Shown here piece by piece: positions 9,522 to 61,000 of a DNA stretch of 64,000 nt. Positions within the stretch are counted from its first letter, which is position 1. Each line of letters begins with the position of its first letter. A program made the translations under genes and the position numbers. The stretch lies in the NCBI GenBank assembly GCA_965226025.1, contig CBDDCD010000002.1, positions 1,985,828-2,049,827 of the forward strand. The letters run 5' to 3'. The notes under the pieces are model-generated. The model saw only the letters and a list, made by a program, of their open reading frames with translations, was not told the origin of the DNA and made no database searches. This DNA comes from Candidatus Moanibacter sp. (GTDB lineage Bacteria; Verrucomicrobiota; Verrucomicrobiia; Opitutales; UBA2987).

Positions 9522-9562
9522 AAAAAAAAGGCCGGATAGAGCTGCAAAAAGCTCGATCCGGC
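9522..9562 (-). terminator. Intrinsic terminator-like hairpin inside the IS left end, oriented antisense to the transposase (present in all five copies)
   Basis: 12-bp stem with one mismatch (GCCGGATAGAGC / GCTCGATCCGGC), followed on the antisense strand by C plus T8. Confidence 0.6.
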
Positions 9563-9613
9563 GAAAAAGGGCGCTTATGCTTGCGTTAGTCAAATACAAA
9601 GCACGCCCTTCTC

Positions 9614-11092
9614 ATGAAAAATATTGCCGTACAAAGCTTCCTGCGTCCAGCCCTAACTCCAGTCATTCGATGCAAAGACTACACCGTGTTTCTGGAAACA
9701 ATGGAGCGGATTGACCGGGTTTTGATCGACTCCTCGCTGGAAAGGGAGGCGATCGTAAAAGCCTTGGAAGGATGGGATGAAGCGGGAGGGAAGGATCGGG
9801 AGCGACGCGCTCTAAGAGCGATAAAAGCGCTACGGGTGGAGGTGGTGCGTCATTTACTCGGAGGGATATCCTTTCGTTGTCTGTCGCAGGAGTTGGGACG
9901 CAGTGAGCTTCTGGCTAATTTTTGCCGGGTGCGTGAGGTAGACGGGATCCGGAAAATATCGAAGAGCAGTCTGGAACGGGATTCGAAATTCTTCGACGAA
10001 GCGTATCTGAGACAGCTGCATGCAAGGATGACCGAGGTGGTGGGCAATGCTGAACATTGTGGTGAGGCAGGATTAGAGAAGCCGATCGATACGAGGGAAT
10101 GCCTGATCGACGCCACTTGCCTGGAAGCGAACATCCACTGGCCCGTGGACTGGGTCTTGCTCAAGGATGTGGGAGCAACGCTGCTCAAGGCGATCAGTCT
10201 GATCCGGCAGGCGGGAATGAAACAGCGCATGCCCCAGGGAGCAAAGGGATTGGCTCGGGAGATGAACAAACGGTGCCTGGAGATGACGCATGCGCGTCGG
10301 CGCCGGGAGGCGGGCAAAGCGCGTAAAGGGATCCTGCGGCGGATGAAGCTATTGCTCAAGAAGATTGAGGGCCATGCCCTTCGCCACCGTGACTTATTGG
10401 AAGCTATGTGGATGCAAAGCGATTACACCGAGAAGAAGGCGAGCCGAATCATCGAGCGAATGGATGGTATGTTAGAGCAGATACCGCAGGTCATGAAACA
10501 GGCGCACGAACGGATCATAGGGGGGCGGCAGGTGAAGAATGAGGAGAAGATCCTGAGCGCCTACGAACCTGAGATTGACGTCATCGTGCGAGGCAAGGCA
10601 GATCGGGAGGTGGAGTTTGGCAACACCCTTTATTTATGCGAGAGCGCAGAGGGATATCTGTTGGACTGGAAACTGTATGGGGGGCAGGCCCCGAGCGAAT
10701 TGAAGCAGCTTTGGGAAAGTCTGGAGAGGCAAAAGGGCTTCGCTTTAGAGGAGAAGATCGAAGCGATCAGTGGGGATCGGGGCTATGCCTCGAAGGCGGC
10801 CAGCAAGCGGCTCCAGGCAGAGGGGATTTTTGACGCCCTTACGCCCCGCAATCCACAAGAGCTCAAGGAGCGGATGGAGGAGCCGCGCTTTGTCCGGTTG
10901 CAGCGACGACGAGGGAGCACCGAAGGCCGGATCGGAGTGCTCAAGAACCGATGGCACGGGGGCAAGATACGCAGCAAAGGCTTTGACAACCGTAACCTTA
11001 GCGTGGCCTGGTCGGTTCTGTCCCACAATCTATGGAAAATCGCGCAGAGACTTGCGCAAGAACATGAGAAAGAGGCAACGCAGGCGGCATAG
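9614..11092 (+). CDS. DDE transposase (492 aa), IS5/ISNCY-like
   Basis: IDATCLEANIHWPVDWVLL (first Asp), SGDRGY (second Asp) and RGSTEGRIGVLK (Glu). The protein is identical in the four intact copies. Confidence 0.93.
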   Translation: MKNIAVQSFLRPALTPVIRCKDYTVFLETMERIDRVLIDSSLEREAIVKALEGWDEAGGKDRERRALRAIKALRVEVVRHLLGGISFRCLSQELGRSELLANFCRVREVDGIRKISKSSLERDSKFFDEAYLRQLHARMTEVVGNAEHCGEAGLEKPIDTRECLIDATCLEANIHWPVDWVLLKDVGATLLKAISLIRQAGMKQRMPQGAKGLAREMNKRCLEMTHARRRREAGKARKGILRRMKLLLKKIEGHALRHRDLLEAMWMQSDYTEKKASRIIERMDGMLEQIPQVMKQAHERIIGGRQVKNEEKILSAYEPEIDVIVRGKADREVEFGNTLYLCESAEGYLLDWKLYGGQAPSELKQLWESLERQKGFALEEKIEAISGDRGYASKAASKRLQAEGIFDALTPRNPQELKERMEEPRFVRLQRRRGSTEGRIGVLKNRWHGGKIRSKGFDNRNLSVAWSVLSHNLWKIAQRLAQEHEKEATQAA

Positions 11093-14000
11093 GGATCCAA
11101 GAATCGAGTCAGAGGCGCTTCCTTGGGAGAACTATCGACTCAAAGCGAGAGGAAGGGTGCTGGAAAGGTGCATAACGGATAAAAGGTAAGCTACCGAGGA
11201 CGGAAGGCATGTCGTGGTCTACATAACGTGACGAAGATTGATATCGGTATCAGGCTTCCACCCAAATCCTCTCGGATTTGGGACAGCCTCTACGATAGGA
11301 GATGTCGACGTTGCGACGGATGTGGGCGGAGAAACCCTCGATGTCACGGTAACGCTGGATGACAGCAGTCTTGGTGCGCTTGGAGGAGAGGGTCAGGTGG
11401 TGACATTTCTCGGTGCTCCTGGAACGGTGACGACGAGTCTTCGGCTTGTTCAATTCTCGCCGGTCGCGAACCGGCTGCAGGTAGGACTGACCGAGCAGGC
11501 GGATGTGACTTTTGCGGTCAAGGACGATTTCCCGGCCAATTCTGCCGATAACGGCACCTTCAGCTTCACGATTGAGTCGATAAACGACCTTCCTTCTCTC
11601 AACATAGTTGTAATCGCGCCCCAGATTTCCGACGACGTTCTCTCGGCGAAGCCATTTTCGGTGACGGTGGACGATCCGGATGTCGGTGAAACTTTCACCC
11701 TCGACATCGTTCCTTTGACCGATCCCGGTTTTACCTTTGGGACCTTCTCGGAAGACCCCTTGAGCTTCAGCGGAGATGCGGACACGATCGCCACAGCGAT
11801 TGCCAATCTGCAATTCTTCCCCAACCAAGGGAGCGTTTCGGGAAGCCAAGATCTATTGTTCGATTTCCAGATCGACGATGGGACCGACCTTGACCATCCA
11901 GGCGGCCCCTTCTCATTTCCTGCCCAATTCACCTTGGTGGAGGAGAACAACCCTCCCGACATACTCGGCGTCGAACTTGAAACCATTCGCATCGACGACG
12001 ACGAGACGGTCCAGCCCTTCACCACGGTCCAAATTGTCGACACGGATGAAGGGGGGGCGCAACTGGTGACACTCGATATTATCCTCAGCGACCCTTTGCT
12101 GGGAAGCTTGGAGATGCCCGTTGGCGTTCCAGTCGTCTTCCCCACCGCCCCGATGACTCCGACGGACGCCACCACCTTTATCCGGAGTCTCGTCTTCGTG
12201 CCTGATGGTACGGAGGTGCCGATTGGACAGACGGTCTCAGTGAATCTCGATATTAGAGTGACCGATTCCCAGTTGGAGGTTCGTTCCGATGATCGCACTC
12301 GCATCGCTATTACGAGCGTGAACGGAGCGCCGGATATTCAAAACATTCCATTGCCTGCGGATCAGCCTCTGTTGATTCAGCCGGATCCGGTCGAGCTCAA
12401 GCCTTTCGACGGCATTGTCATAGAAAATGACGATCTCAACGATGTGGCAGTCACGGTCACATTCGACAACTCGGCCAAAGGCACTCTGACGAATCTGGGA
12501 GGCTTTTCTCTTTCTTCGCCCGGGATTTATTCGATGACCGACGACAAGGTCACCGTCACGGCCGACTTGCAATTGCTCGAGTTTGAGGTCAGCGACACGT
12601 TTTCGTTTCCACCTGACGCGCCCGGTGGAACCACTTTTCAAATCAAGGCGGTGGATTTCGTTGGTAATACGACGATCGAATCATTGGAGATTATCGTGCA
12701 TAATGAGCCGCGGAACTGGTGTGTTACGCGAGCAGACGACGATCTGGATCCCTCGACCGGTACCCCGTTTTCTGGATCCCTGCGATTCGCGGTGGAGAAC
12801 GCGGGTACGAACGACATGATCACCTTCGCCCTGCCGCGCTATCCGGCGATCATTCGGCTCAATTCCGCCTTGGGACCTCTGGCGCTCGGTCGGAATCTGG
12901 TCTTGCGTGGTCCGGGCTCCGACCTCCTGACCATCAGCGGTGACACGGACGGAAATCTGGAGCCGGATGTGCAGCTCTTCCGTGTCGATGCGTCAGTGGA
13001 TATGGAGGGACTGACGTTGGCTTTCGGCCGCGCCCAGACGGGCGGAGCGATTTACGTGGGGCCTCTTGGCAATCTCACCCTGCGTTACTGCGCGGTACGC
13101 GATTCGATCGCCGATCAATGGGGCGGCGGCATCGATGTTTCCGGCGGCGCGCTGAGCCTCGAGCAATGTTCAGTTCTGAATAATCAAACCGATGCCGGGC
13201 CGGGGCTCGGAGGAGGCGGTGTCTCTCTCTACACCGATCAGGCTTGCAGCTTTTTAAACACGACTTTTGCCCAAAATCAGCAGCTGGCGGAAGGAGGATT
13301 CGGGGGCGGCGCACTCTACGTGGAGAATTTCTCACCCGGCACCGATCTCCCGGTTACGGTTGCTCATTGCACTTTTGCGGAAAATCTTGATGCCTCCGAT
13401 AATGGATCGTCGATCCACGCCAACGTATCCGGTACCATGGTGACTCTGCGAAACTCGATATTCGCCGATGGTCAGAGCCGAAATCTGCAGTTGTCAGGGG
13501 CGGCAATGATCATTTCCGGGAACGGCAATATCTCGGACGACAGTACTCGGGTCTTGGTGAGCCAAGAAGGCGGACCGCAAGAGGTTTTCATTCTCGATCA
13601 ATCGGTTGACCGGAGGGAGACGGATCCTCTGTTGCAGCTGTTGGATTCGGGCCTGATTCCCACGCCCGGCTATCCGCCGTCATCCGGAAGCCCGGCGATC
13701 GGTTTGTCGGTGAGCCCGTTCGATGCTCTCGATCAACGCGGGGTGATCAGGGGATCGGGGCAGGATTCCGGTTCGCTCGAATTCGAGACGACCTCCCGCG
13801 TCGTGATCAATGAAATTCAGGCGAAAGGGGTACCCGACAACAATTTCGTGGAAATCTATGTGCCGCGAAATTCCTCGCCCCTCGATTTGAGTGGCTACCA
13901 ACTCTTCGTCGGCGGGGTACAGCGCCATGTCATCGTTGGCGGAACGACGGTCCAGCCGGGTTTCGGAATCATCATCGCGGCCTCGGGAACGCCTGTAGTT

Positions 14001-16618
14001 TCGGTGTTAAGCAATCCTCCTCTCACACTTGAAGAGCGTGGACTGGTGGAATTGAAGGACCCGAACGATGATGCCATCGTTAGGGTGCCTTTCATCGATG
14101 TTTATGTGAATCTAGACGATATCACATCGGAAATCGACTACGACTTAAACTCGATGACCTTGGCTCCGCAGTTCAGAGGAGCCGCCTTCCTGCCCCATAC
14201 GATTGTTGAGGCGCCGCCGTTCGGCGGGGCGGACAAGGCTGACCCGCCCGCTGCTCCCAACTCCCCTGGTAAGGATTCGAGCGATACTCCATTCGGGCTG
14301 GACAACGCTTTTCCAGTAGTGTCGGAAGATTTCGTCCTCACTCGGGAGGACGACGTTGTCAACGCCGACGTTTTAGGCAACGACGTGGATGCGGATGGAA
14401 CCGATGTGCTCCAAATCGTCGACCTCGGCCTGACCGAAAGCGACAGCCTCGGCGATGCCAGCCTCGTGACGGGAATGGGAGCAACTGTGACCATTATCCC
14501 GGCCGTTCCCGGATTGACCGTGGATTACGATCCAAGGTTGTCAGCAACGCTTCAGGCTCTTCCCGAGGGCGCTCAGGAAGTCGATTCATTCTGGTACACG
14601 GCCGTGGATTTCGGCACCGGTGCGATTGATATGTACACGGACCTCTCGCCCAATGTGAGTATCGATTCGCTGAGTCATCGCCTGGAGACGGGTGATTTTA
14701 TCGACATCTCGGGTTCCTTGAACGGGGACTACGACGGACAGTTCGCGATTACACGTATTGATGATGATGCCTTCAGCATTGTTGCGCCCTTTTTCACAGA
14801 TTCGCCGCCTCGAGGTTCCTGGATGACGGTTGATCCACGGGTTGACCCGGCGATGCCCGATGAGCGCAAGGAGGCCGAGGTGCAGGTCACTGTCCTCGGT
14901 GTGAATGATCCACCTGCGCCGATAGATGACGCGGTCGGGACCGATGAGGGTACGATCATCCGGATTATGGGCGATGGCGATCCCGTCGAGACGACTACGG
15001 CGTTCAATTCGGATGTCGATTTTCCCCATGTTCCGCAGATATTTCCCTTTGCCCTTCTCCCGAACGACGGTGACGTCGACACCGACGATGACTCCAGTTC
15101 CCTGAGGATTACAGGTGTCGTCGGAGAGGTGACCGGTATTGGTGACTTCAGTGCTCCGGCCGAGCCGCCCACAGAAAGGGTCATCGTCACATCTCCGGCA
15201 CACGGGCTCGATGACGGTACCGAAATCCTCATTTCGGGATACGGAGGCCATCCGAGTTACAACGGATTTCACAACATCACTTTGATCGACACAGACACCT
15301 TTTCCATTCCCGTGATCTTCGTCGACAACGACGCGACCAAGGGCGACTGGGCCATTCTAAACGATGACAATCGATTGGAGGCGGTTACCGGACTGGGAGC
15401 TGAGGTCTCTCTCGAGATCTTCGCAGACAGAACCGAAACTAACATTGTCTACAATCCTCTTTCCTCGGAAGCCCTGAATGCGCTCGCTACCTCCGAGTCG
15501 AGCGTCGACCAATTCTACTATGCCGCGGAGGACAGCCACGGAGCTGTGACTTTTGCCCGGGTCGATGTGACCGTGGATGGGGTGAACGACGATCCGGTAG
15601 CGGTTGACGATCCAGGGACACTGGATGTCTTAGATCCGTTTCTGGAAACAGGGGAGATGATTTCCGATCTCATCCCTCAGCTCGATATTCTCCTCCATCT
15701 TCCCTCCATGACGGACCCGTCCGGTCAGGCGGATGTGAGGGTGACGGTGCTCGATGATCCGGAGGTGGACCCGTTCTACATTCGCGACCTCTTCACCACC
15801 GATGAAGAGACCCCTCTCCCAATCCTGTCCAGCGAGCTGTTGGCCAATGATTCAGACGTAGACACATCAGACGTCCTCTTCGTTGAGTCGGTATCGAGTC
15901 CGAGCACATTGGGGGCGACCGTGACTCTCAGTGTGGACCAAAGCACGATCACCTACGATCCGACTGGTTCTTCGACTCTCGATGCGTTGGTGCGAAACCA
16001 GCCCGTGATCGATCTCTTTACGGTGACGATTAATGACGGAGGGCCAATCGGGAATTTCACGGCCGAAGTGGTAGTACTGGTGACTGGGTTGAATGACTCC
16101 CCGGTGGCGGTTGACGATTCGACCACAACGGACGAGCACACTATTATCACTTTCGACCCCATACCAGGTCCCGGCGGTCTCACTCCCGATACCGATGTCG
16201 ACATCGACGGAACCGCTCCGGACGATGAGTTGCAATTGATCGAGGTGACGGATGCTCCCACCGCGGCGGCCGCCCGATTTTCCATCAGTGGACCCACTGT
16301 GACCTACGATCCGACTGTTTCTAGTCAGCTTGATTCGTTGCCGGTGGGAGGCTTCTTCGTCGATACTTTCGATTACGTGGTGACGGACAACAGTTTTGTC
16401 TTCGCCAACAACGATCTCTTCAAGGTGGCTGCGGACGGGGCCGGCTTTGTGTTGGATGTACTGGCTAACGACCGCAATCTCAGCGGCCTTGGAGGCGGAT
16501 TAACCATCAGTGAAGTGGGCTTACCGGATAGCGGCGGCACGGCGGAGGCGATTAACGCCGATACCGCAGTTTTGTACACCCCGGAAGTGAATTTTATCGG
16601 AGACGAGAACATACCTTA

Positions 16619-18436
16619 GAGGCTGTCCCAAATCCGAGAGGATTTGGGTGGAAGCCTGATACCGATATCAATCTTCGTCACGTTATGTAGACCACGACAT
16701 GCCTTCCGTCCTCGGTAGCTTACCTTTTATCCGTTATGCACCTTTCCAGCACCCTTCCTCTCGCTTTGAGTCGATAGTTCTCCCAAGGAAGCGCCTCTGA
16801 CTCGATTCTTGGATCCCTATGCCGCCTGCGTTGCCTCTTTCTCATGTTCTTGCGCAAGTCTCTGCGCGATTTTCCATAGATTGTGGGACAGAACCGACCA
16901 GGCCACGCTAAGGTTACGGTTGTCAAAGCCTTTGCTGCGTATCTTGCCCCCGTGCCATCGGTTCTTGAGCACTCCGATCCGGCCTTCGGTGCTCCCTCGT
17001 CGTCGCTGCAACCGGACAAAGCGCGGCTCCTCCATCCGCTCCTTGAGCTCTTGTGGATTGCGGGGCGTAAGGGCGTCAAAAATCCCCTCTGCCTGGGAGC
17101 CGCTTGCTGGCCGCCTTCGAGGCATAGCCCCGATCCCCACTGATCGCTTCGATCTTCTCCTCTAAAGCGAAGCCCTTTTGCCTCTCCAGACTTTCCCAAA
17201 GCTGCTTCAATTCGCTCGGGGCCTGCCCCCCATACAGTTTCCAGTCCAACAGATATCCCTCTGCGCTCTCGCATAAATAAAGGGTGTTGCCAAACTCCAC
17301 CTCCCGATCTGCCTTGCCTCGCACGATGACGTCAATCTCAGGTTCGTAGGCGCTCAGGATCTTCTCCTCATTCTTCACCTGCCGCCCCCCTATGATCCGT
17401 TCGTGCGCCTGTTTCATGACCTGCGGTATCTGCTCTAACATACCATCCATTCGCTCGATGATTCGGCTCGCCTTCTTCTCGGTGTAATCGCTTTGCATCC
17501 ACATAGCTTCCAATAAGTCACGGTGGCGAAGGGCATGGCCCTCAATCTTCTTGAGCAATAGCTTCATCCGCCGCAGGATCCCTTTACGCGCTTTGCCCGC
17601 CTCCCGGCGCCGACGCGCATGCGTCATCTCCAGGCACCGTTTGTTCATCTCCCGAGCCAATCCCTTTGCTCCCTGGGGCATGCGCTGTTTCATTCCCGCC
17701 TGCCGGATCAGACTGATCGCCTTGAGCAGCGTTGCTCCCACATCCTTGAGCAAGACCCAGTCCACGGGCCAGTGGATGTTCGCTTCCAGGCAAGTGGCGT
17801 CGATCAGGCATTCCCTCGTATCGATCGGCTTCTCTAATCCTGCCTCACCACAATGTTCAGCATTGCCCACCACCTCGGTCATCCTTGCATGCAGCTGTCT
17901 CAGATACGCTTCGTCGAAGAATTTCGAATCCCGTTCCAGACTGCTCTTCGATATTTTCCGGATCCCGTCTACCTCACGCACCCGGCAAAAATTAGCCAGA
18001 AGCTCACTGCGTCCCAACTCCTGCGACAGACAACGAAAGGATATCCCTCCGAGTAAATGACGCACCACCTCCACCCGCAGCGCTTTTATCGCTCTTAGAG
18101 CGCGTCGCTCCCGATCCTTCCCTCCCGCTTCATCCCATCCTTCCAAGGCTTTTACGATCGCCTCCCTTTCCAGCGAGGAGTCGATCAAAACCCGGTCAAT
18201 CCGCTCCATTGTTTCCAGAAACACGGTGTAGTCTTTGCATCGAATGACTGGAGTTAGGGCTGGACGCAGGAAGCTTTGTACGGCAATATTTTTCATGAGA
18301 AGGGCGTGCTTTGTATTTGACTAACGCAAGCATAAGCGCCCTTTTTCGCCGGATCGAGCTTTTTGCAGCTCTATCCGGCCTTTTTTTTGCCCATAACTCA
18401 TTAAAAATCAATTGTTTCCACCACTGGGACGGGCTC
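16619..18436 (-). mobile_element. Same IS, copy 2 (1818 bp, transposase frameshifted)
   Basis: Direct repeat TACCTTA at 16612-16618 and 18437-18443. It carries one extra G (GGG at 17095-17097, GG in the other copies). Confidence 0.95.
16817..18296 (-). pseudogene. Frameshifted transposase of IS copy 2
   Basis: The ORF track splits it into a 406-aa piece (17076-18296) and a C-terminal piece. The catalytic-Glu region is out of frame. This could be a real lesion or a sequencing indel. Confidence 0.85.
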
Positions 18437-21400
18437 TACCTTACGAAGTTACCGATGGGGAGGGCCACACCGATCAGGGGATCCTGGTGGTCCGAGTGGT
18501 GGTTGAGCAGATCAACGGAAACTTGCAGGCAAATGATGACGACTTTACGGTGGCAAAAGGGGAGTCGCCCGTTCTCAATGTCCTATCCAATGATAACGTG
18601 ATCCCGGCCTTGGGAAGTGACTTGACGATCACTCGGATCGTGACACCACCAGACCAAGACTCGGTGGAACTTGCGGACAACCAAATCACCTACGTCCAAA
18701 GTTTCGACGGTTCATTTCCCTACGATACCACGTTCGAGTATGAAGTTTCAGGCGGAGGAACCGTCTTGACCATTGCCCGAGTCCAGGTCCACGTGATCAA
18801 TCGCGAAGGAACCTTGAACGTCAACGATGACTCCTTCTCGGTAGGGAGAGACAGCACCGATAACCGTTTGGACGTCCTTTTCAATGATCCCATCTTTCCG
18901 GATGTTAACGGAGCCCTCAGCATCCGCGATCCATTGTTCGCGACCCCTCAATTCGGTGTGGCTACAATCGACGACTCGGAAGGCCAAAGCGTTTTGCGGT
19001 ATTCTCCGGATCCTGGATTCGTGGGTATCGATACTCTCACCTACGAGGCTTCAGATGGACGAGGCGGAACTGGAACCGGTATGGTCGAGGTTGCGGTGGG
19101 CATGCCGTTCCCCCTGGATGATGTAGTGGGGGCGCGCGTCGATCCAGGCTCGGATACCGATCTCTCTGTTTTGGAGAATGATCGCGTCCTCCCCGATACG
19201 CTGGGAACGATTTCCGTCCAGAGTGTGATCGTGACTGACGGTGTTTCAGGAATTGGAGGCATGGCAGTGAATGGAGACAACTCTGGCCTGATTCTCACCT
19301 CGAACAACACCTTTGGGGAAGAGGACTTCACCGTTACTACGGTCGACGGAGGGAATCCTGCACGGACGGTCGAGTCGACCGTGAAGGTGATCATGGTGGG
19401 TGACGGATTGCACGCTCAACCCGATACCTTTGCCGTCCTTGTCGATAGCCTCGGAAATGATCTGATGGTGCTGAACAATGATTTGGCGGTGTCCGATGAT
19501 GAGAGGGACTTCTCGCTTGTCAGCATTGGCGTCGGCTTGGATGGTCCGAATCAAGGAGGTAGCGCGGTCGTGAACGCAAACAGCGACGGGATCCTGTGTA
19601 CCCCTGCTGAGGGGTTTGTCGGGGAGGAGACTTTCCTCTACACCATGACCGATACTCTGGTCACATCGACGGCTACGGTCATTGTGCGGGTCGGGGACGG
19701 GGAATTGGCCTCCAGTGACGATGCCTACACCGTGTTCTTCGATATCGTCAATGGTGGAGAACCGATGTCTTTCGATCTGCCGCTTGTTCTGAACGATGCC
19801 GTCTTCCCCGACCTCGGGCAATTGCTCTCGGTAGCGGAAGTCGATGTGGACGACACGATCCCGCCCAATCCTCCGGATGTGCCGGGCGATGTGGCGATCA
19901 ATTCCGACGGCACCGGAATCGTTTACACTCCTCGTGATGAGGATGGACCTTTCCCCTACGTTGAACGGTTTAGCTACGACCTAACGGACGGAAGCGAAGA
20001 TCGTCAGGGTGGAGTTGTCGTCATCGAGGTTCAGGAGCGCACGGGTGAACGCGAAACAGTCACGAATGACGATGTATTCTCCGTCGATAGCAACAGCCTC
20101 AACAATCTGCTGCCGGTCTTGCTCAATGATGAAGCAAAACCTGGATCGGCGCTGAACTGGGAGATTACGAATGTCTCGACCCCGGCCTTCAATGGCATCG
20201 TTTCTATCAGCGGCCCGGTGATCCTCTATACGCCTCAGATCGATTTTATCGGGGTCGATTCCTTCAGCTACGACATTGCGGATGGTCAAGGCGGGACCGG
20301 AACTGCCTCGGTGTCGGTCCTGGTTGGCCATTTTCCGATCTGTGAAGACCTGTTCTCGGTCCTATCGGACAGCGTCGATAATGAGCTCGATGTGCTGGTG
20401 AACGATAATATCCGGCCCGATTTGGGCTTGAGCTTTACCATCGGAGTCGCGGGAACCAATGGATCCGGTGACAATCAGACGGATGCGGGTGGAACCGTAA
20501 CTGTAAACGGGACAGGAACAGGAAACACGGTCCTTTACACTCCTCCAGCAGGTTTCGTCGGTAACGACGGGTTCACCTATGAAATCGCGGATGACTCCGG
20601 AAATCGGTTCAGCGGCGAAGTAGCTGTAACTGTGGCTGAGGTCGGATCCGATCGCGATACCGGCACCGTTTCCATTACGGTCGATGGTATCAATGACGTG
20701 CCCGTTTTGGCGGGTACAGCGCCGTTCCCCAGTATTATTACGGATCGTGAGACCGCGGATCCCTTCTCCAACGTATCCATAACAGATCCTGACGAGAGTC
20801 CCCCGGGCACTCCTGAGAATCTTACGGTGACAATCACCCTCGATGACGGTGACAAGGGTATTCTCCTTGGAGTTTTCAACAACGACGGAGGCGGGGTCTA
20901 TTCCTTCATCGGGAGTCCCGCTGACGCCACTACGACGATCAGGGCCTTGATCTTTGATCCCACCGACAATCGCATCCCGCACGCGGATCCACCCAATCCT
21001 GAGGTTGCGACATTCACTATAACGGTGGTCGATCCTCATGGCGGCACCGCCGGGCCGGACAGCACCACGACAGTATCCGTGGTTCCGGGCGAAAACGCCC
21101 CTCCGACCGCATTTGACGACCTCAGTTTGAGTACGGATGAGGACACGGTCCTCGTCATCGATGCTCTCGACAATGACGTCGAACTCGACCTCTTGGACGT
21201 CCTCAAGTTCACTGAAATCATGGAGGCGAACAACGGAGAGGTGACCAGTCTAGAGGCCGAAGCGATCACTCCGGGGGCGGGATTGTTTGCCATTCGAGGA
21301 CCAGCCGATGATCCCAATACAAGCCTCACTGATGTCGGTCGCACATTCGACAACGACCTCCCGGAAGGTCCGCGTATAGTTTACGATCCGACCGTATCAC

Positions 21401-24400: not shown

Positions 24401-27400
24401 TGGCGACGGTCGCGGTCCAGGTTGGTGACCTGCCGACCAATGATGATCTTTTCGCCGTGCTCTCTGACAGCCTAGACAATGATCTCGATGTATTGGCGAA
24501 CGACAATGTGCTTCCGGAGACGGCTGAGACATTCACCATTGTAAGTGCGGGAGTCGCGGGCTCAGGTGACGGACAAACTCAAGGGGGAGGATCCGTCAGC
24601 GTAAACGGGATTGGGCCCGGAAACTCAGTTTTTTACACGCCTCTCGGAGGGACCCTGGGAATGGATTTCTTCACTTACGAAGTGACTGACGATACGGGGA
24701 ATCTGGTGAGCGGAAATGTGGCCGTGATGATTATTGAAGAGGGATCAGACCGGGATTCAGCGACCAAGACGGTTACCGTTACCGGCGTCAACGATCATCC
24801 CTCGATTGCCGGCGCCGTTCCTTTCCCGGGTTCGATCGCGGATAAGGAAGCGGCGGCGCCGTTTACCGGCGTGACGATTGGAGATGTGGACATCGATCCA
24901 AGTACGGGGCTGCCTGAAGTGGTGAACGCGATAGTGAGCTTGGATGACCCGGTTAAGGGCATCCTTATGAACCTTAACGGTTTCGCCGATGAAGGCGGTG
25001 GAGTCTATTCTTTCACCGGTGTTCCGCAGGATCTCACGGACACCATTCGCCTCTTGGTTTTCGCTCCGACGATGAATCGGATCCTTGTCGGCGATCCTCC
25101 AATTTCGGAATTGACGACTCTTGCGATCACCGTCACGGACACGCATGGCGCTGTCACCGGTCCGGACAGCGGCATCACCGTAGCAGTCATTGCGGTCAAC
25201 GATCCGCCACAAATTGACGGCACTCAATCGGACCAAGCAGTCTACCACGAAGGATCGATATTCGCATTTTCCGGTGTAACGATCACCGATATTGATGATA
25301 GTTTGGTCCAACCGCTGGAAGTGACCGTGCAGATCGACGATCCGATCAAAGGAGGGTTGTCAAACCTGGATGGATTTGTGGACCAAGGAGGAGGTCTCTA
25401 CCATTCTGACAACGTCACCACAGCCGCTGCGACCATTTCTCTAAGAGGGCTACTCTTCACCCCCACGACGGATGGTCGGGTCACTCCGGGTTCACCGGAG
25501 ACGACCCAATTCACCATCACGGTCGATGATGGATTTGCTACCCCGGTTGTCGATGCATCGACGTCTGTCATCGCCATGCATGGTCTTGTCGCAGAACTCT
25601 CGGCGGGTGGCTCAATCAGCATTTTAGGTACCGGTCCCCAATCCGACGATCTCTTCGGTTACTCGGTGGCGACAAGCGGCGACACCCTCGTGGCGGGGGT
25701 TCCCTTTGACGATGACAATGGAAACGATTCCGGTTCCGCCTATGTATTTGCTCGAGACGAAGGTGGATCCGATCAATGGGGTCTGGTCATGAAATTGCTT
25801 CCCCTCGATGGAACGGTGGGAGCGAATTTCGGCCAGTCCGTTGCCGTCAGCGGCGACTTCATTGCGGTCGGTGCACCGTCCGATTTTCCGGATGGGACGG
25901 CAACCGGATTCGTTTACATCTTTGCCCGCAATTTGGGGGCAGGGGATCCGTGGGTGGAGGTCGCTAAACTGGTCTCTTTCGACGCTGCCCAAGGTGACAT
26001 GTTCGGATCTTCGCTCTCCATCGATGGAAACATCCTGGCGGTCGGCGCCCGTCATGATGATACCGGTAGTGAGATCAGTAGTTTGGTTATCGGTGGCGAC
26101 AGCGGATCCGGTTCCGTCTACGTCTACACTGGGACCCCCGGGCTTCCTTCGCAATGGCTCCTGGAAAAGAAGGTTGTGGGTTCGCTAGGAGGGTCTGGGG
26201 ATGATTTTGGCTACTCGGTCGCGGTTGAGGGGAACACCCTTGTAGTGGGCGCTCCAGGAGCGGACGGTAAGCCGGGAGAGCCGAGTGGTCCGGTTGCGAA
26301 ATCCGAGGCGGTTGAGAATTCCGGTGCGATCTATGTGTTTGAGCGTGACCTGGGTGGTAGCGGCGAATGGGGTGAACGGGTGCGGCTCATACCCTCGGAC
26401 ATCGAGAGGAACGATCGCTTTGGATTCTCGGTTGGCATCAGCGGCGACTCGATTGTCGCCGGCTCACCTTTGGATGAAGTGAACCTACTTTTAACGGGCT
26501 CTGCGTATGTTTTCGAGCGGGACGAGGGCGGAGCAGACCAATGGGGCGAGGTTACGAAGATCCTACCCACCGCAGGCGAGGACGACGGCCTCTTTGGATT
26601 CGCCGTAGCGATCGAAGAGGACAGAGTCGTTGCGGGCATGCCCAATGACGATGACCGAGTGTCGGCAGAAGATCCGGGCCCGTCCGACTTCGGCTCCGCC
26701 TATGTCTTCGGCCGGGATCAGGGCGGGGTTGGCCAATGGGGTTTGATCGAAAGACTCAACGCCCCCGTTCTTGAGGCCGACGATCAGTTCGGATTCTCCC
26801 TCGCTTTGGTTGACAATACTTTGGCCGTGGGAATGCCTTTTGCAGACGAGTCTGGTGGAGACCAAGATGTGGGTAATGCATTTGTCTTCCGGATAAAATT
26901 CAACAATCCACCTCAAGTCGCGAATCCTGTTCCCGATCAGATAGCGACCGTCGATAAGTCCTTCGAATTCACGATTCCTTCGGGATCCATAACCGATCCG
27001 GACGTCGGTGATTCGCTTGTCTTTTCCGCCGATCTCGGCTCGGGAACGCCATTGCCTGGTTGGTTGAGTTTTGATCCCGTGCTGCTAAGCCTCAGCGGCA
27101 CTCCCCAAGCCGCCGATCTGGGAGACTGGGCGATCGAATTTACGGGGACGGATGAGGATGGAGAGAGTGCCTCCGATGTGTTCGTCATCACCGTAAGTCA
27201 GGTTGAAAGCGGGAGCTCGGGAGAGGTCTTCAGCAGCTGGTTATCAGGATTCTTCTCCCCGGCTGAACTCGGTGATCCAGGCCTCGAGGATACGCTATGG
27301 GGAGACGGCGCCGATCCGGATAAGGACGGTCGGAGCAATCTCCTTGAATACGGTCTGGGTTCGGGCCCCACGGATGCTGAGAATGGCGGTCAAAATATCT

Positions 27401-40710: not shown

Positions 40711-40791
40711 ATTGCGCCCTTCGGCGGGCTCAGGACAGGGTCTTGCGATTTTTGTAATAGGATGCACCATCTTTTGCGTGGCGGTACACTA

Positions 40792-42608
40792 GAGGCTGTC
40801 CCAAATCCGAGAGGATTTGGGTGGAAGCCTGATACCGATATCAATCTTCGTCACGTTATGTAGACCACGACATGCCTTCCGTCCTCGGTAGCTTACCTTT
40901 TATCCGTTATGCACCTTTCCAGCACCCTTCCTCTCGCTTTGAGTCGATAGTTCTCCCAAGGAAGCGCCTCTGACTCGATTCTTGGATCCCTATGCCGCCT
41001 GCGTTGCCTCTTTCTCATGTTCTTGCGCAAGTCTCTGCGCGATTTTCCATAGATTGTGGGACAGAACCGACCAGGCCACGCTAAGGTTACGGTTGTCAAA
41101 GCCTTTGCTGCGTATCTTGCCCCCGTGCCATCGGTTCTTGAGCACTCCGATCCGGCCTTCGGTGCTCCCTCGTCGTCGCTGCAACCGGACAAAGCGCGGC
41201 TCCTCCATCCGCTCCTTGAGCTCTTGTGGATTGCGGGGCGTAAGGGCGTCAAAAATCCCCTCTGCCTGGAGCCGCTTGCTGGCCGCCTTCGAGGCATAGC
41301 CCCGATCCCCACTGATCGCTTCGATCTTCTCCTCTAAAGCGAAGCCCTTTTGCCTCTCCAGACTTTCCCAAAGCTGCTTCAATTCGCTCGGGGCCTGCCC
41401 CCCATACAGTTTCCAGTCCAACAGATATCCCTCTGCGCTCTCGCATAAATAAAGGGTGTTGCCAAACTCCACCTCCCGATCTGCCTTGCCTCGCACGATG
41501 ACGTCAATCTCAGGTTCGTAGGCGCTCAGGATCTTCTCCTCATTCTTCACCTGCCGCCCCCCTATGATCCGTTCGTGCGCCTGTTTCATGACCTGCGGTA
41601 TCTGCTCTAACATACCATCCATTCGCTCGATGATTCGGCTCGCCTTCTTCTCGGTGTAATCGCTTTGCATCCACATAGCTTCCAATAAGTCACGGTGGCG
41701 AAGGGCATGGCCCTCAATCTTCTTGAGCAATAGCTTCATCCGCCGCAGGATCCCTTTACGCGCTTTGCCCGCCTCCCGGCGCCGACGCGCATGCGTCATC
41801 TCCAGGCACCGTTTGTTCATCTCCCGAGCCAATCCCTTTGCTCCCTGGGGCATGCGCTGTTTCATTCCCGCCTGCCGGATCAGACTGATCGCCTTGAGCA
41901 GCGTTGCTCCCACATCCTTGAGCAAGACCCAGTCCACGGGCCAGTGGATGTTCGCTTCCAGGCAAGTGGCGTCGATCAGGCATTCCCTCGTATCGATCGG
42001 CTTCTCTAATCCTGCCTCACCACAATGTTCAGCATTGCCCACCACCTCGGTCATCCTTGCATGCAGCTGTCTCAGATACGCTTCGTCGAAGAATTTCGAA
42101 TCCCGTTCCAGACTGCTCTTCGATATTTTCCGGATCCCGTCTACCTCACGCACCCGGCAAAAATTAGCCAGAAGCTCACTGCGTCCCAACTCCTGCGACA
42201 GACAACGAAAGGATATCCCTCCGAGTAAATGACGCACCACCTCCACCCGCAGCGCTTTTATCGCTCTTAGAGCGCGTCGCTCCCGATCCTTCCCTCCCGC
42301 TTCATCCCATCCTTCCAAGGCTTTTACGATCGCCTCCCTTTCCAGCGAGGAGTCGATCAAAACCCGGTCAATCCGCTCCATTGTTTCCAGAAACACGGTG
42401 TAGTCTTTGCATCGAATGACTGGAGTTAGGGCTGGACGCAGGAAGCTTTGTACGGCAATATTTTTCATGAGAAGGGCGTGCTTTGTATTTGACTAACGCA
42501 AGCATAAGCGCCCTTTTTCGCCGGATCGAGCTTTTTGCAGCTCTATCCGGCCTTTTTTTTGCCCATAACTCATTAAAAATCAATTGTTTCCACCACTGGG
42601 ACGGGCTC
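40792..42608 (-). mobile_element. Same IS, copy 3 (1817 bp), intergenic
   Basis: Direct repeat TACACTA at 40785-40791 and 42609-42615. The transposase at 40990-42468 is intact. Confidence 0.95.
40990..42468 (-). CDS. DDE transposase (492 aa)
   Basis: Identical protein to copy 1. Confidence 0.93.
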   Translation of the reverse strand: MKNIAVQSFLRPALTPVIRCKDYTVFLETMERIDRVLIDSSLEREAIVKALEGWDEAGGKDRERRALRAIKALRVEVVRHLLGGISFRCLSQELGRSELLANFCRVREVDGIRKISKSSLERDSKFFDEAYLRQLHARMTEVVGNAEHCGEAGLEKPIDTRECLIDATCLEANIHWPVDWVLLKDVGATLLKAISLIRQAGMKQRMPQGAKGLAREMNKRCLEMTHARRRREAGKARKGILRRMKLLLKKIEGHALRHRDLLEAMWMQSDYTEKKASRIIERMDGMLEQIPQVMKQAHERIIGGRQVKNEEKILSAYEPEIDVIVRGKADREVEFGNTLYLCESAEGYLLDWKLYGGQAPSELKQLWESLERQKGFALEEKIEAISGDRGYASKAASKRLQAEGIFDALTPRNPQELKERMEEPRFVRLQRRRGSTEGRIGVLKNRWHGGKIRSKGFDNRNLSVAWSVLSHNLWKIAQRLAQEHEKEATQAA

Positions 42609-43016
42609 TACACTAAACACGAAAGCGGGCCAGCCAGTTTGCCGGGAGGCAGAGTGAGTCTCAATCGAATCAGGCGAGAGGTCCCGTGCGGTCTGCTCTA
42701 TGCCAGTTTGACGCCCGGTGGGCTCCCAAGTGGTGGAAGAGCCGTTTGAGGAAAAAACTGATGCAGACCAGCTGTAGCTCGCTCGGTGACGAGCGGGACA
42801 CTCCGGAACTCAGTTTTGACGTCGATTGATCCGTCTCCGCGCGAGCGCTCCGCCGTGACATGTCCGGCATGCTAGACAACTCGAGCAGCGGTGGGCCGTG
42901 ACCTCCGGGCGCGGCAGTAACCTCGATGATCCATCCTAACTCGTTCCGCGTCCGGAGGCCACGGACCACCTTTTTGACCGCGTCCGGCGCGGAAGGCGGC
43001 TCCGCTGACCTCTGTA

Positions 43017-55939: not shown

Positions 55940-57026
55940 AATCGATGCGGCGATCGACCAAGGTATAGGTCAGATCCCCCACCAGCTGCATGACCAGTCC
56001 CAGCAGGGTAAAAAAGTAGAGGGTGCCGAACATCACCGGGTAGTCCCGCCCAATCGCCGCCTTGTAGCCCAAAAGCCCCAGGCCGTCGAGGGAGAAGATG
56101 ATTTCGATCAGCAGCGATCCGGTAAAGAATATACTGACGAAAGCACTGGGAAAGCCGGCGATGACAATGAGCATGGCATTGCGGAAAACATGCCGGTAAA
56201 GCACGCCCCGCAGGCTCAGTCCCTTGGCGTAGGCGGTTGTGACGTACTGTTTGTTGATCTCGTCCAAAAAGGAATTCTTAGTCAACAAGGTCAGTCCGGC
56301 AAAGCCGCCGATGACCAGGGCGAAGACCGGCAGGACCAGATGCCAGAAATAGTCGACAAGCTTGCCCAAGAGGCTCAATTGCTCCCAATTGGCCGAAGTC
56401 AGCCCGCGCAGAGGGAACCAGTTGACGTAGTGACCGCCGGCAAAGACCACGATGAGGAGGATGGCAAAGAGGAAACTGGGCACGGCGTTGCCGACCACAA
56501 TCACTCCCGAGGTCCACACGTCAAAGCGGGAACCGTCCCGCACGGCTTTGGCGATACCCAGAGGGATCGAGAGGCAGTAGATGAGCAGGGTGCTCCACAG
56601 CCCCAAAGAGATCGAGACCGGCATCTTTTCGAGCACAAGATCGACCACATTGGAGTCGCGGTAAAAGCTCTCGCCAAAATCAAAGCGCAGGTACTGGCCG
56701 ATCATCAAGAAGAACCGCTCCACCGGCGGCTTGTCGAAGCCGTAGAGCCGCTCTAATTCCACAATCAGCTCGGGGTCGAGGCCTTGGGCGCCGCGGTATT
56801 TGCTCGAGACCCCTTCGGCAATCCCCGAACCCGATAACTGTAGCGCCTCCCGATTGTCCGTACCGCTAAAGCGGGCCGTGGCGTCGGTGGCGTGCCCTTG
56901 CAGTTGGGCGATAACCTGTTCCACCGGGCCGCCAGGGGCCGCCTGAATGACGATAAAATTGATCACCATGATGCCGAAGACGGTCGGCACTATCAACAAC
57001 AGCCGGCGTGCTATATAGGCTAGCAT
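55920..57026 (-). CDS. yejB: Peptide ABC transporter permease, YejB-like (IS inserted at its start codon)
   Basis: [35 protein letters not shown]...YGFDKP and [15 protein letters not shown]. The ATG lies inside the IS target duplication. Confidence 0.92.
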
Positions 57027-57027
57027 A

Positions 57028-58844
57028 GAGCCCGTCCCAGTGGTGGAAACAATTGATTTTTAATGAGTTATGGGCAAAAAAAAGGCCGGATAGAGCTGCA
57101 AAAAGCTCGATCCGGCGAAAAAGGGCGCTTATGCTTGCGTTAGTCAAATACAAAGCACGCCCTTCTCATGAAAAATATTGCCGTACAAAGCTTCCTGCGT
57201 CCAGCCCTAACTCCAGTCATTCGATGCAAAGACTACACCGTGTTTCTGGAAACAATGGAGCGGATTGACCGGGTTTTGATCGACTCCTCGCTGGAAAGGG
57301 AGGCGATCGTAAAAGCCTTGGAAGGATGGGATGAAGCGGGAGGGAAGGATCGGGAGCGACGCGCTCTAAGAGCGATAAAAGCGCTGCGGGTGGAGGTGGT
57401 GCGTCATTTACTCGGAGGGATATCCTTTCGTTGTCTGTCGCAGGAGTTGGGACGCAGTGAGCTTCTGGCTAATTTTTGCCGGGTGCGTGAGGTAGACGGG
57501 ATCCGGAAAATATCGAAGAGCAGTCTGGAACGGGATTCGAAATTCTTCGACGAAGCGTATCTGAGACAGCTGCATGCAAGGATGACCGAGGTGGTGGGCA
57601 ATGCTGAACATTGTGGTGAGGCAGGATTAGAGAAGCCGATCGATACGAGGGAATGCCTGATCGACGCCACTTGCCTGGAAGCGAACATCCACTGGCCCGT
57701 GGACTGGGTCTTGCTCAAGGATGTGGGAGCAACGCTGCTCAAGGCGATCAGTCTGATCCGGCAGGCGGGAATGAAACAGCGCATGCCCCAGGGAGCAAAG
57801 GGATTGGCTCGGGAGATGAACAAACGGTGCCTGGAGATGACGCATGCGCGTCGGCGCCGGGAGGCGGGCAAAGCGCGTAAAGGGATCCTGCGGCGGATGA
57901 AGCTATTGCTCAAGAAGATTGAGGGCCATGCCCTTCGCCACCGTGACTTATTGGAAGCTATGTGGATGCAAAGCGATTACACCGAGAAGAAGGCGAGCCG
58001 AATCATCGAGCGAATGGATGGTATGTTAGAGCAGATACCGCAGGTCATGAAACAGGCGCACGAACGGATCATAGGGGGGCGGCAGGTGAAGAATGAGGAG
58101 AAGATCCTGAGCGCCTACGAACCTGAGATTGACGTCATCGTGCGAGGCAAGGCAGATCGGGAGGTGGAGTTTGGCAACACCCTTTATTTATGCGAGAGCG
58201 CAGAGGGATATCTGTTGGACTGGAAACTGTATGGGGGGCAGGCCCCGAGCGAATTGAAGCAGCTTTGGGAAAGTCTGGAGAGGCAAAAGGGCTTCGCTTT
58301 AGAGGAGAAGATCGAAGCGATCAGTGGGGATCGGGGCTATGCCTCGAAGGCGGCCAGCAAGCGGCTCCAGGCAGAGGGGATTTTTGACGCCCTTACGCCC
58401 CGCAATCCACAAGAGCTCAAGGAGCGGATGGAGGAGCCGCGCTTTGTCCGGTTGCAGCGACGACGAGGGAGCACCGAAGGCCGGATCGGAGTGCTCAAGA
58501 ACCGATGGCACGGGGGCAAGATACGCAGCAAAGGCTTTGACAACCGTAACCTTAGCGTGGCCTGGTCGGTTCTGTCCCACAATCTATGGAAAATCGCGCA
58601 GAGACTTGCGCAAGAACATGAGAAAGAGGCAACGCAGGCGGCATAGGGATCCAAGAATCGAGTCAGAGGCGCTTCCTTGGGAGAACTATCGACTCAAAGC
58701 GAGAGGAAGGGTGCTGGAAAGGTGCATAACGGATAAAAGGTAAGCTACCGAGGACGGAAGGCATGTCGTGGTCTACATAACGTGACGAAGATTGATATCG
58801 GTATCAGGCTTCCACCCAAATCCTCTCGGATTTGGGACAGCCTC
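57028..58844 (+). mobile_element. Same IS, copy 4 (1817 bp), between yejA and yejB
   Basis: Direct repeat TAGCATA at 57021-57027 and 58845-58851. Confidence 0.95.
57168..58646 (+). CDS. DDE transposase (492 aa)
   Basis: Identical protein to copy 1. Confidence 0.93.
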   Translation: MKNIAVQSFLRPALTPVIRCKDYTVFLETMERIDRVLIDSSLEREAIVKALEGWDEAGGKDRERRALRAIKALRVEVVRHLLGGISFRCLSQELGRSELLANFCRVREVDGIRKISKSSLERDSKFFDEAYLRQLHARMTEVVGNAEHCGEAGLEKPIDTRECLIDATCLEANIHWPVDWVLLKDVGATLLKAISLIRQAGMKQRMPQGAKGLAREMNKRCLEMTHARRRREAGKARKGILRRMKLLLKKIEGHALRHRDLLEAMWMQSDYTEKKASRIIERMDGMLEQIPQVMKQAHERIIGGRQVKNEEKILSAYEPEIDVIVRGKADREVEFGNTLYLCESAEGYLLDWKLYGGQAPSELKQLWESLERQKGFALEEKIEAISGDRGYASKAASKRLQAEGIFDALTPRNPQELKERMEEPRFVRLQRRRGSTEGRIGVLKNRWHGGKIRSKGFDNRNLSVAWSVLSHNLWKIAQRLAQEHEKEATQAA

Positions 58845-58851
58845 TAGCATA

Positions 58852-60917: not shown

Positions 60918-61000
60918 AGACTCACCTTAGAATGGATTTTACATTTCAAGGCAATCTAGCGCGAAAAGGCCGATCGGGTCAACGGCCGGAACACTAGGTA

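Follow-up and report, generated by a model that had tools for sequence, protein, structure and literature searches.

Split immunoglobulin (Ig)-like domains, or 'split extender' domains, are known in the repeats-in-toxin (RTX) adhesins FrhA, AhLap and MpIBP (PMC10865825, PMC12077191, bioRxiv 10.1101/2025.09.30.679566). The insert in these proteins is one globular ligand-binding domain (CBM, PBD, vWFA or beta-roll) with adjacent termini, and the chain leaves the host domain either after the first strand or before the last two strands (bioRxiv 10.1101/2025.09.30.679566). Here we analysed a 64,000-nucleotide stretch (the window) of contig CBDDCD010000002.1 of Candidatus Moanibacter sp. (Verrucomicrobiota; assembly GCA_965226025.1, positions 1,985,828 to 2,049,827 of the forward strand), in which an adhesin-like gene (8658–27651, + strand) encodes a protein of ~5,115 aa after reconstitution. 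It is likely that this protein contains two discontinuous cadherin-like host domains, that arrays of Ig-like modules are nested in them before strand G, and that the arrays form out-and-back hairpin side arms. As in the RTX split domains, an Ig-like beta-sandwich of the main axis would be discontinuous, with the insert budding out and the chain returning to complete the fold, and in both cases the arrangement is usually overlooked by domain databases. Unlike in the RTX split domains, 2, 6 or 8 Ig-like modules in tandem (~185–1,140 aa) make up the insert here, the exit is before the last strand only (after strand F), and the protein itself, in which Pfam detects no RTX repeats, falls outside the RTX adhesins and belongs to a lineage of Verrucomicrobiales type.

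Beta-sandwiches made from two distant chain segments also occur in the integrin beta-subunit, whose hybrid domain is split by the beta-I domain, and in the pneumococcal pilus adhesin RrgA, with nested insertions in a 'Russian doll' order; however, their inserts are single globular domains and not even-numbered tandem arrays of the host's own fold. In chaperone-usher pilins, the Ig-like fold lacks its C-terminal G strand and another subunit donates a strand in trans, driving polymerisation. In contrast, the strand in the present protein most likely comes from the same chain, 185–1,140 residues downstream, and closure in cis is favoured over supply in trans by the even-number rule described below. 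The known cadherin-like, Big_9 or 'tandem-95' repeat proteins are described as linear beads, the nesting of one subtype in another being absent from the family description, and we found no publication in which an Ig domain is described as hosting a tandem array of Ig modules. Split Ig-like domains themselves are thus already established, and what is new here is the even-number rule, the breadth of the family and nesting on three levels.

In the window, host domain 1 begins with an N-part (16098–16394; strands A–F) that ends in DTFDYVVTDNS, with the D of its DNS motif at 16386 and the end of the motif at 16394, and joins the FVFANNDLFKV of the first inner module directly, with no linker. Inner array A (16395–20643) then comprises 8 complete modules, A1 (16395–18528, which holds an insertion sequence [IS]), A2 (18529–18819), A3 (18820–19113), A4 (19114–19413), A5 (19414–19710), A6 (19711–20061), A7 (20062–20337) and A8 (20338–20643). 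It is followed by the putative distal G strand of host domain 1, GSDRDTGTVSITVDGINDVP (20644–20703), beyond which a domain with no Pfam match (20704–21132) carries the main axis on. Host domain 2 has its N-part at 22387–22671, ending in DEFSYTVLDNS (DNS at 22663–22671), and inner array B (22672–24741) comprises 6 complete modules, B1 (22672–23199), B2 (23200–23490), B3 (23491–23811), B4 (23812–24126), B5 (24127–24435) and B6 (24436–24741). The corresponding distal G strand, GSDRDSATKTVTVTGVNDHP (24742–24801), leads into two domains of the same type as that at 20704–21132, which carry the main axis on beyond host 2 (24802–25602), and then into FG-GAP repeats. All these features lie on the + strand, and both distal strands have the pattern GSDRD...GVNDxP. 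An earlier reading of the window from its letters and translations (the sequence-only reading) had set the four junctions at the DNS motifs (16386 and 22663), at the start of GSDRDTGTVSITVDGIND (20644) and at GSDRDSATKTVTVTGVND (24742–24795), and had counted 8 modules, once the IS is removed, and 6 between the truncated host and the orphan strand; the four positions are exact and both counts hold.

Each of the 14 inner modules carries its own last strand in a MAFFT alignment, and a hidden Markov model (HMM) of the inner module gave exactly 8 + 6 full-length matches (~1–97 of 101 positions, 64–117 bits each), module B1 being matched in two pieces that flank a nested insert. A register-shift arrangement, in which each module would borrow the last strand of the next one, was rejected since the inner modules match the HMM end to end. 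Host domains and inner modules both belong to the cadherin-like/Big_9 families (Pfam PF17963, PF17892 and PF17803). Host-type domains, however, scored at most 15 bits against the inner-module HMM, indicating that host and insert are distinct subtypes.

Using a second HMM of 103 positions, built from the six unsplit sister domains that directly precede the hosts in the window and in four orthologues, we compared the two host pieces with a complete domain. The sister domains of the same protein carry the ending F.Y..D..G....V.V.GVND in one piece, as had been pointed out earlier, and complete sister domains match this HMM at positions 3–103 with ~130 bits. The host N-parts match only up to 84–87, both in the two window copies (3–84 for host 1 and 3–87 for host 2) and in the orthologues L002, L003, L005 and L006, and the orphan distal strands map to positions 80/83–103. 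In a joining test on 37 arrays, the N-part plus the distal strand scored 15.4 ± 4.4 bits more than the N-part alone, with 92% of the alignments running to the end of the model, whereas joining the N-part to the final strand of the first or of the last inner module instead added 7.9 or 4.1 bits and the end was reached in 3% or 0%, respectively. The GVND.P linker to the next main-axis domain is located on the distal strand, as in every host-type domain, and the inner modules lack it. By the HMM mapping and the joining test, one domain is thus made up at the sequence level of strands from two non-contiguous segments. We infer that strands F and G of the two pieces pair with each other, with which the structure model described below is consistent. 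Insertions of 16 aa and of ~80 aa (small domains) are present in the F-G loop of other host-type domains of this protein, with similar ones in orthologues, so that the loop is a recurrent insertion site, in domains that are undoubtedly continuous.

The initial searches yielded few relatives. No match at E≤1e-5 came from a word-indexed protein search in which the query ran from the last module through the distal strand to the next domain, the first protein search returned (except for P0001) nothing but generic Big_9 repeats and proteins of less than ~1,440 aa, the first genome-contig scan with a single 821-aa protein found no relative, and the 805-aa segment of host 2 plus array B had no sequence match in PDB. 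The sole near relative from the first searches, L001, is a 2.5-kb JGI contig (Ga0484982_0099457) that encodes six colinear modules and, past a frameshift, the return junction ...VTVYAR/GSDRSTATVSIEVDGVNDRP and the same downstream domains. The frameshift in this contig (~1560–1800) is accompanied by an apparent deletion of ~25 aa in the sixth module, and both are probably assembly or sequencing errors. A metagenome scan with a three-row alignment then identified further orthologues; L001 to L006 show 31–38% identity and conserve both junction motifs (a slash marks the exit): 1) L003 has the exit ...FNYTATDSS/FVFATDDLF, 8 modules and the return GSDRDTATVAVTVTGVNDAP. 2) L005, a 3,646-aa open reading frame (ORF) up to a stop codon, has the exit ...FVYTVSDQS/FIFAENDLF, 8 modules and the return GSDRSSSTITFTVEGVNDLP. 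3) L002, a 3,160-aa ORF, has the exit ...FSYTVLDRS/LTIANDDFF, 6 modules and the return DSDRNTGLVTITVLGKNDPP. 4) L004 has 6 modules and the return GADRTQ..., the exit being outside the contig coverage. 5) L006 has the exit junction and at least 3 modules before the contig ends, with the return outside the coverage.

When a profile covering the last module, the distal strand and the domain after it was run against 1.84 billion representative proteins, 5,845 matches were obtained, and among the best 150 of these both junction motifs were found in ~40 proteins, each a separate 50%-identity cluster representative, with ~50 arrays. The exit motif is D.S/[FLM].[FI]A..D.F and the return motif [GD]SDR...V.V.GVND.P; the Asp of D.S (D94) is invariant, and its Ser (S96) and the Asp of SDR (D284) are nearly invariant. 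Judged from the sequences, recurrence of the split in ~50 arrays is far beyond chance. According to the genome records, the family members come from marine metagenome-assembled genomes (MAGs) labelled Verrucomicrobiae or Verrucomicrobiales and from one labelled Gammaproteobacteria. The member in the latter MAG is L040 (PBHS01000002.1), and its placement could reflect mis-binning or horizontal transfer.

By walking automatically from each truncated host, module by module, as far as the return strand, we found arrays of 8 modules (27 arrays), 6 modules (14 arrays) and 2 modules (2 arrays). Apparent counts of 1, 3, 5, 7 and 9 were artefacts that all resolve to 6 or 8, since modules had been split by large nested inserts, a divergent sixth module had been overlooked, the contig had ended or a junction had been placed wrongly. 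The cassettes occur in the combinations 8+6 (window and P0153), 6+6 (P0151), 8+8 (P0173), 8+2 (P0165) and 6+2+6 (P0137, 3,900 aa); the third return strand of P0137 runs straight into a C-terminal sorting-like domain and not into a GVND.P linker. With position-specific HMMs trained on 8-module arrays, those of the window being excluded, modules A1 to A8 were each assigned to their own position. In the 6-module arrays, the first two modules are equivalent to positions 1 and 2 and the last one to position 8, whereas two of the central positions have no counterpart, clearly 4 and 5 in L004 and L001; the 2-module array of P0165 consists of position 1 and position 8. Since the termini of an Ig module are at opposite poles and the array starts and ends at one loop, the array most likely runs out and back as a hairpin. 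Such a hairpin predicts even-only sizes with loss of central modules, whereas a linear chain does not.

It had been proposed that the two arrays of the window arose by duplication of a cassette, on the grounds that their first three and last modules are mutually homologous. Array B as a whole is colinear with array A minus two central modules. For the individual modules, the homology is strong for A8/B6 (60% identity) and moderate for A2/B2 (41%), but weak or non-reciprocal for A1/B1 and A3/B3. The proposal is thus partly supported: with 43% identity between the host N-parts and 54–60% over A8/B6 and the domain after them, the two cassettes are paralogous, but 6- and 8-module cassettes are also found singly in other genomes and in mixed combinations, so that they represent two old size classes and not local duplication alone.

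AlphaFold2 was applied to residues 3052–3352 of P0165, a natural 2-module member, from the host N-part through both modules to the return strand, with 13 natural alignment rows, in every one of which both host pieces are within the same sequence. The model had a mean predicted local distance difference test score (pLDDT) of 86.1 and a predicted template modelling score (pTM) of 0.73. In it, the return segment is an 11-residue strand (285–295, pLDDT 86–88), host strand F (83–93) is equally long, and the last module retains its own G strand (270–279). The nearest structural matches by Foldseek were linear tandem cadherins and an RTX extender tetramer, to which the model aligned over ~330 columns with a TM-score of 0.19–0.27 and a root-mean-square deviation (rmsd) of ~30 Å. 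Such a long alignment with so large a deviation indicates that the single domains are cadherin-like and that the assembly is not a straight string. For adjacency of the insert termini, the observations are indirect, namely the sizes 2, 6 and 8, the pTM of 0.73 and the rmsd of ~30 Å against linear tandems. The nested, non-linear architecture put forward in the sequence-only reading is therefore borne out on several sides: by profile mapping, by the joining test, by junctions kept in many distant relatives, by smaller insertions at the same loop, and by the P0165 model, in which a natural 2-module member is predicted with confidence as a compact, non-linear assembly.

Small domains of ~60–80 aa with the pattern H.L..G..V.ISG....YNG.H.V..ID.D.F.I are present in module B1 and in two host-type domains (14607–14873 and 15135–15386). 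The copy in B1 (22750–22983, + strand), a 78-aa insert, constitutes the third nesting level. Pfam gave only sub-threshold hints for this small domain, to E1_FCCH (E 0.011, a weak resemblance of the B1 insert, and 0.052) and to an endosialidase beta-barrel (E 0.13). Among the relatives, L003 has the same small-domain insert in module 2 and several others have it in module 1, and further nested small domains are present in many arms. Position 6 is the inner module most prone to inserts; in the 8-module arrays of P0189, P0185 and P0141, very large nested inserts of 129–305 aa are located at its start. The domain that follows the return strand, ~135 aa and without a Pfam match, is repeated at 20704–21132, at 24802–25602 and at roughly 11540–12700, with the pattern ...P.I.G....I.D.E...PF..V.I.D.D...L.V...LDD..KG.L...GGGVYSF.G...IR.L.F.PT.NRI.... 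It always stands after the return strand, occurs also in tandem near the N-terminus and is common in the representative database.

The arrangement that we consider likely, hairpin arms nested in discontinuous host domains, would come about as follows. Strands A–F of the host would be made first and the chain would exit at the F-G loop, build complete Ig-like modules in tandem, all belonging to a separate subtype, and come back, so that the returning GSDR...V.V.GVND.P segment would provide strand G as well as the canonical linker that leads to the following domain of the axis. The arm would be two modules wide, with n/2 modules out and n/2 back, giving a length of ~4 modules for array A and ~3 for array B. 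Since the F-G loop of a seven-strand sandwich is at the host pole facing the preceding domain, the arm would emerge sideways at an inter-domain junction. The protein would thus be branched, with two arms projecting from a stalk, and the arms would be outside the axial force path while the host stays folded. By analogy, the arms most likely present an additional cadherin-like surface for binding or lateral contact, because RTX split domains project ligand-binding domains off axis (PMC12077191, PMC10865825). For the 6- and 8-module arms, a hairpin geometry is what we infer from these comparisons, as is the function of the arms.

Several points weigh against this arrangement: i) an AlphaFold2 model of joined host 2 (N-part plus distal strand, the construct suggested at the outset), made from a single sequence, had a pLDDT of 37 and is uninformative, ii) it is possible that the distal strand is hairpinned onto the G strand of the last inner module, iii) the fourth module of many 6-module arrays is ambiguous, fitting position 5 or 6, iv) the sampled arrays are phylogenetically related, so that the evenness rests on three size classes and not on ~50 independent events, v) the sample consists of the best 150 of the 5,845 profile matches, vi) the structure model covers a natural 2-module member and not the 6- and 8-module arrays of the window, and vii) two IS copies break the gene in this genome.

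The sequence-only reading had gone further and proposed that the closing strand could act as a force-sensitive latch. Axial force would peel off the distal G strand and place the folded arm in series, releasing tens of nanometres before any inner module unfolds, and the selected role of the array would be mechanical. This follows from the topology, as an axial load would enter the host at strand A, leave it at strand G and so bypass the arm, and the reasoning draws on the general mechanics of Ig domains. The conserved junction residues, D.S and SDR, would also suit a tuned 'neck'. However, the basis of the proposal is topological and not mechanical, the many arms that hold further nested small domains suit surface presentation better than a passive store of length, and the analogous known split domains project binding domains (PMC12077191, PMC10865825). 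We regard a latch as a plausible but unlikely role for the arms.

It is also rather improbable that the protein is a linear chain, in which the host N-part would be a degenerate six-stranded domain, or one closed locally by the FVFA/LTFA of module 1, and GSDR would be an extra edge strand or linker of the last inner module or the next domain, with neither closure nor branch. In the P0165 model the partner of the distal strand is deduced and not directly observed, the 5-residue turn EVGSD between the G strand of the last module and the distal strand could permit a beta-hairpin, and residues LF (98–99) at the start of module 1 take part in a beta bridge. But the distal strand is of the host type, adding 15.4 bits compared with 4 to 8 for inner-module strands, and carries GVND.P, and the last inner modules are already complete without it. 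Moreover, a linear chain leaves the even-only sizes 2, 6 and 8 unexplained, and the 2-module model, although its pTM is 0.73, could not be superposed on linear cadherin tandems (rmsd ~30 Å).

Strand exchange in trans, by which the distal G strand of one molecule would complete the host N-part of its neighbour and giant proteins would be joined into a mesh, seems very improbable. An Ig-like domain without strand G that receives a strand from elsewhere is formally the chaperone-usher situation, and a separation of ~600–800 residues would allow swapping; the even-only sizes and the kept first and last modules, however, favour geometric closure in cis, and the 2-module member, modelled as a monomer, gave a confident, compact structure. 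It is hardly credible that the split is a rearrangement scar in a decaying pseudogene, with a block of modules dropped into a domain-coding region and functionless host pieces left behind, since, although two IS copies interrupt the window gene, its frame is otherwise intact and the same split, with conserved junction motifs, is found in uninterrupted genes of distant relatives (the 3,160-aa ORF of L002 and the 3,646-aa ORF of L005).

The adhesin-like gene is in three pieces (8658–9473, 11298–16618 and 18444–27651), and its start overlaps by 4 bp the stop of a gene for a SurA-like peptidyl-prolyl isomerase (7597–8661). The encoded protein has a signal-peptide-like N-terminus, a beta-helix/lamin-tail domain (LTD) region, cadherin-like domains, the two nested arrays, FG-GAP repeats, a He_PIG domain and a C-terminal domain. 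In the 18445–27648 piece, Pfam matches above the gathering score were Big_9 (374.7 bits, 13 stretches), Cadherin_5 (182.5) and Cadherin_4 (84.1), and near the C-terminus seven FG-GAP repeats and the He_PIG domain were detected. The right-handed beta-helix region and the lamin-tail domain, at 12700–14200 (reconstituted residues ~500–950), both matched below the gathering score. By Pfam, neither piece of the gene had a match to RTX repeats/HemolysinCabind, the C-terminal tail being unrelated, and neither a type I secretion system signal nor a retention module was identified in the adhesin, with no search aimed at the retention module. Two further ORFs are located upstream: that at 4554–7352 (932 aa) matches Calx-beta, Cadherin_3 and one RTX repeat, and that at 35–4411 (1,458 aa) has no Pfam match.

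Copy 1 of the IS inside the gene (9474–11291, 1818 bp) is flanked by the target-site duplication TACGATA and encodes a 492-aa DDE transposase. Copy 2, inside module A1 (16619–18436), is flanked by the 7-bp target-site duplication TACCTTA, and its transposase is frameshifted into pieces of 406 aa and 184 aa (− strand). Removal of both copies, with one target repeat each, gave a single open frame with no other stop; the insertions are therefore recent, and the intact protein is probably not produced in this genome. The window contains five copies of this 1,818-bp IS with at least 99.9% identity (9474–11291, 16619–18436, 40790–42610, 57025–58846 and 60998–62819), characterized by the 492-aa DDE transposase, 7-bp target duplications and imperfect terminal inverted repeats (GAGCCCGTCCCAG / GAGGCTGTCCCAG); five copies so nearly identical point to a recent IS burst.

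Drawings of giant bacterial surface proteins usually show a linear string of Ig beads, in which 'split' domains put out no more than single globular domains. The present family suggests that a whole tandem array can be nested within one bead, on three levels (the host, the array, and a small barrel domain in a module), and the sizes 2, 6 and 8 amount to a simple geometric rule that points to hairpin arms and a branched polypeptide. Domain annotation pipelines will mis-segment such proteins, and length estimates based on repeat counts will be wrong. For protein mechanics, the sequences suggest a natural case in which several hundred folded residues would be kept off the force path by one strand. 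It is doubtful that even-numbered arms closed by one conserved strand serve as a force-released length 'fuse', or as an intermolecular strand swap into a surface mesh; if true, either would be a new principle for bacterial fibrillar adhesins. The arms are candidate ligand-binding or lateral-contact elements in the abundant marine Verrucomicrobiales.

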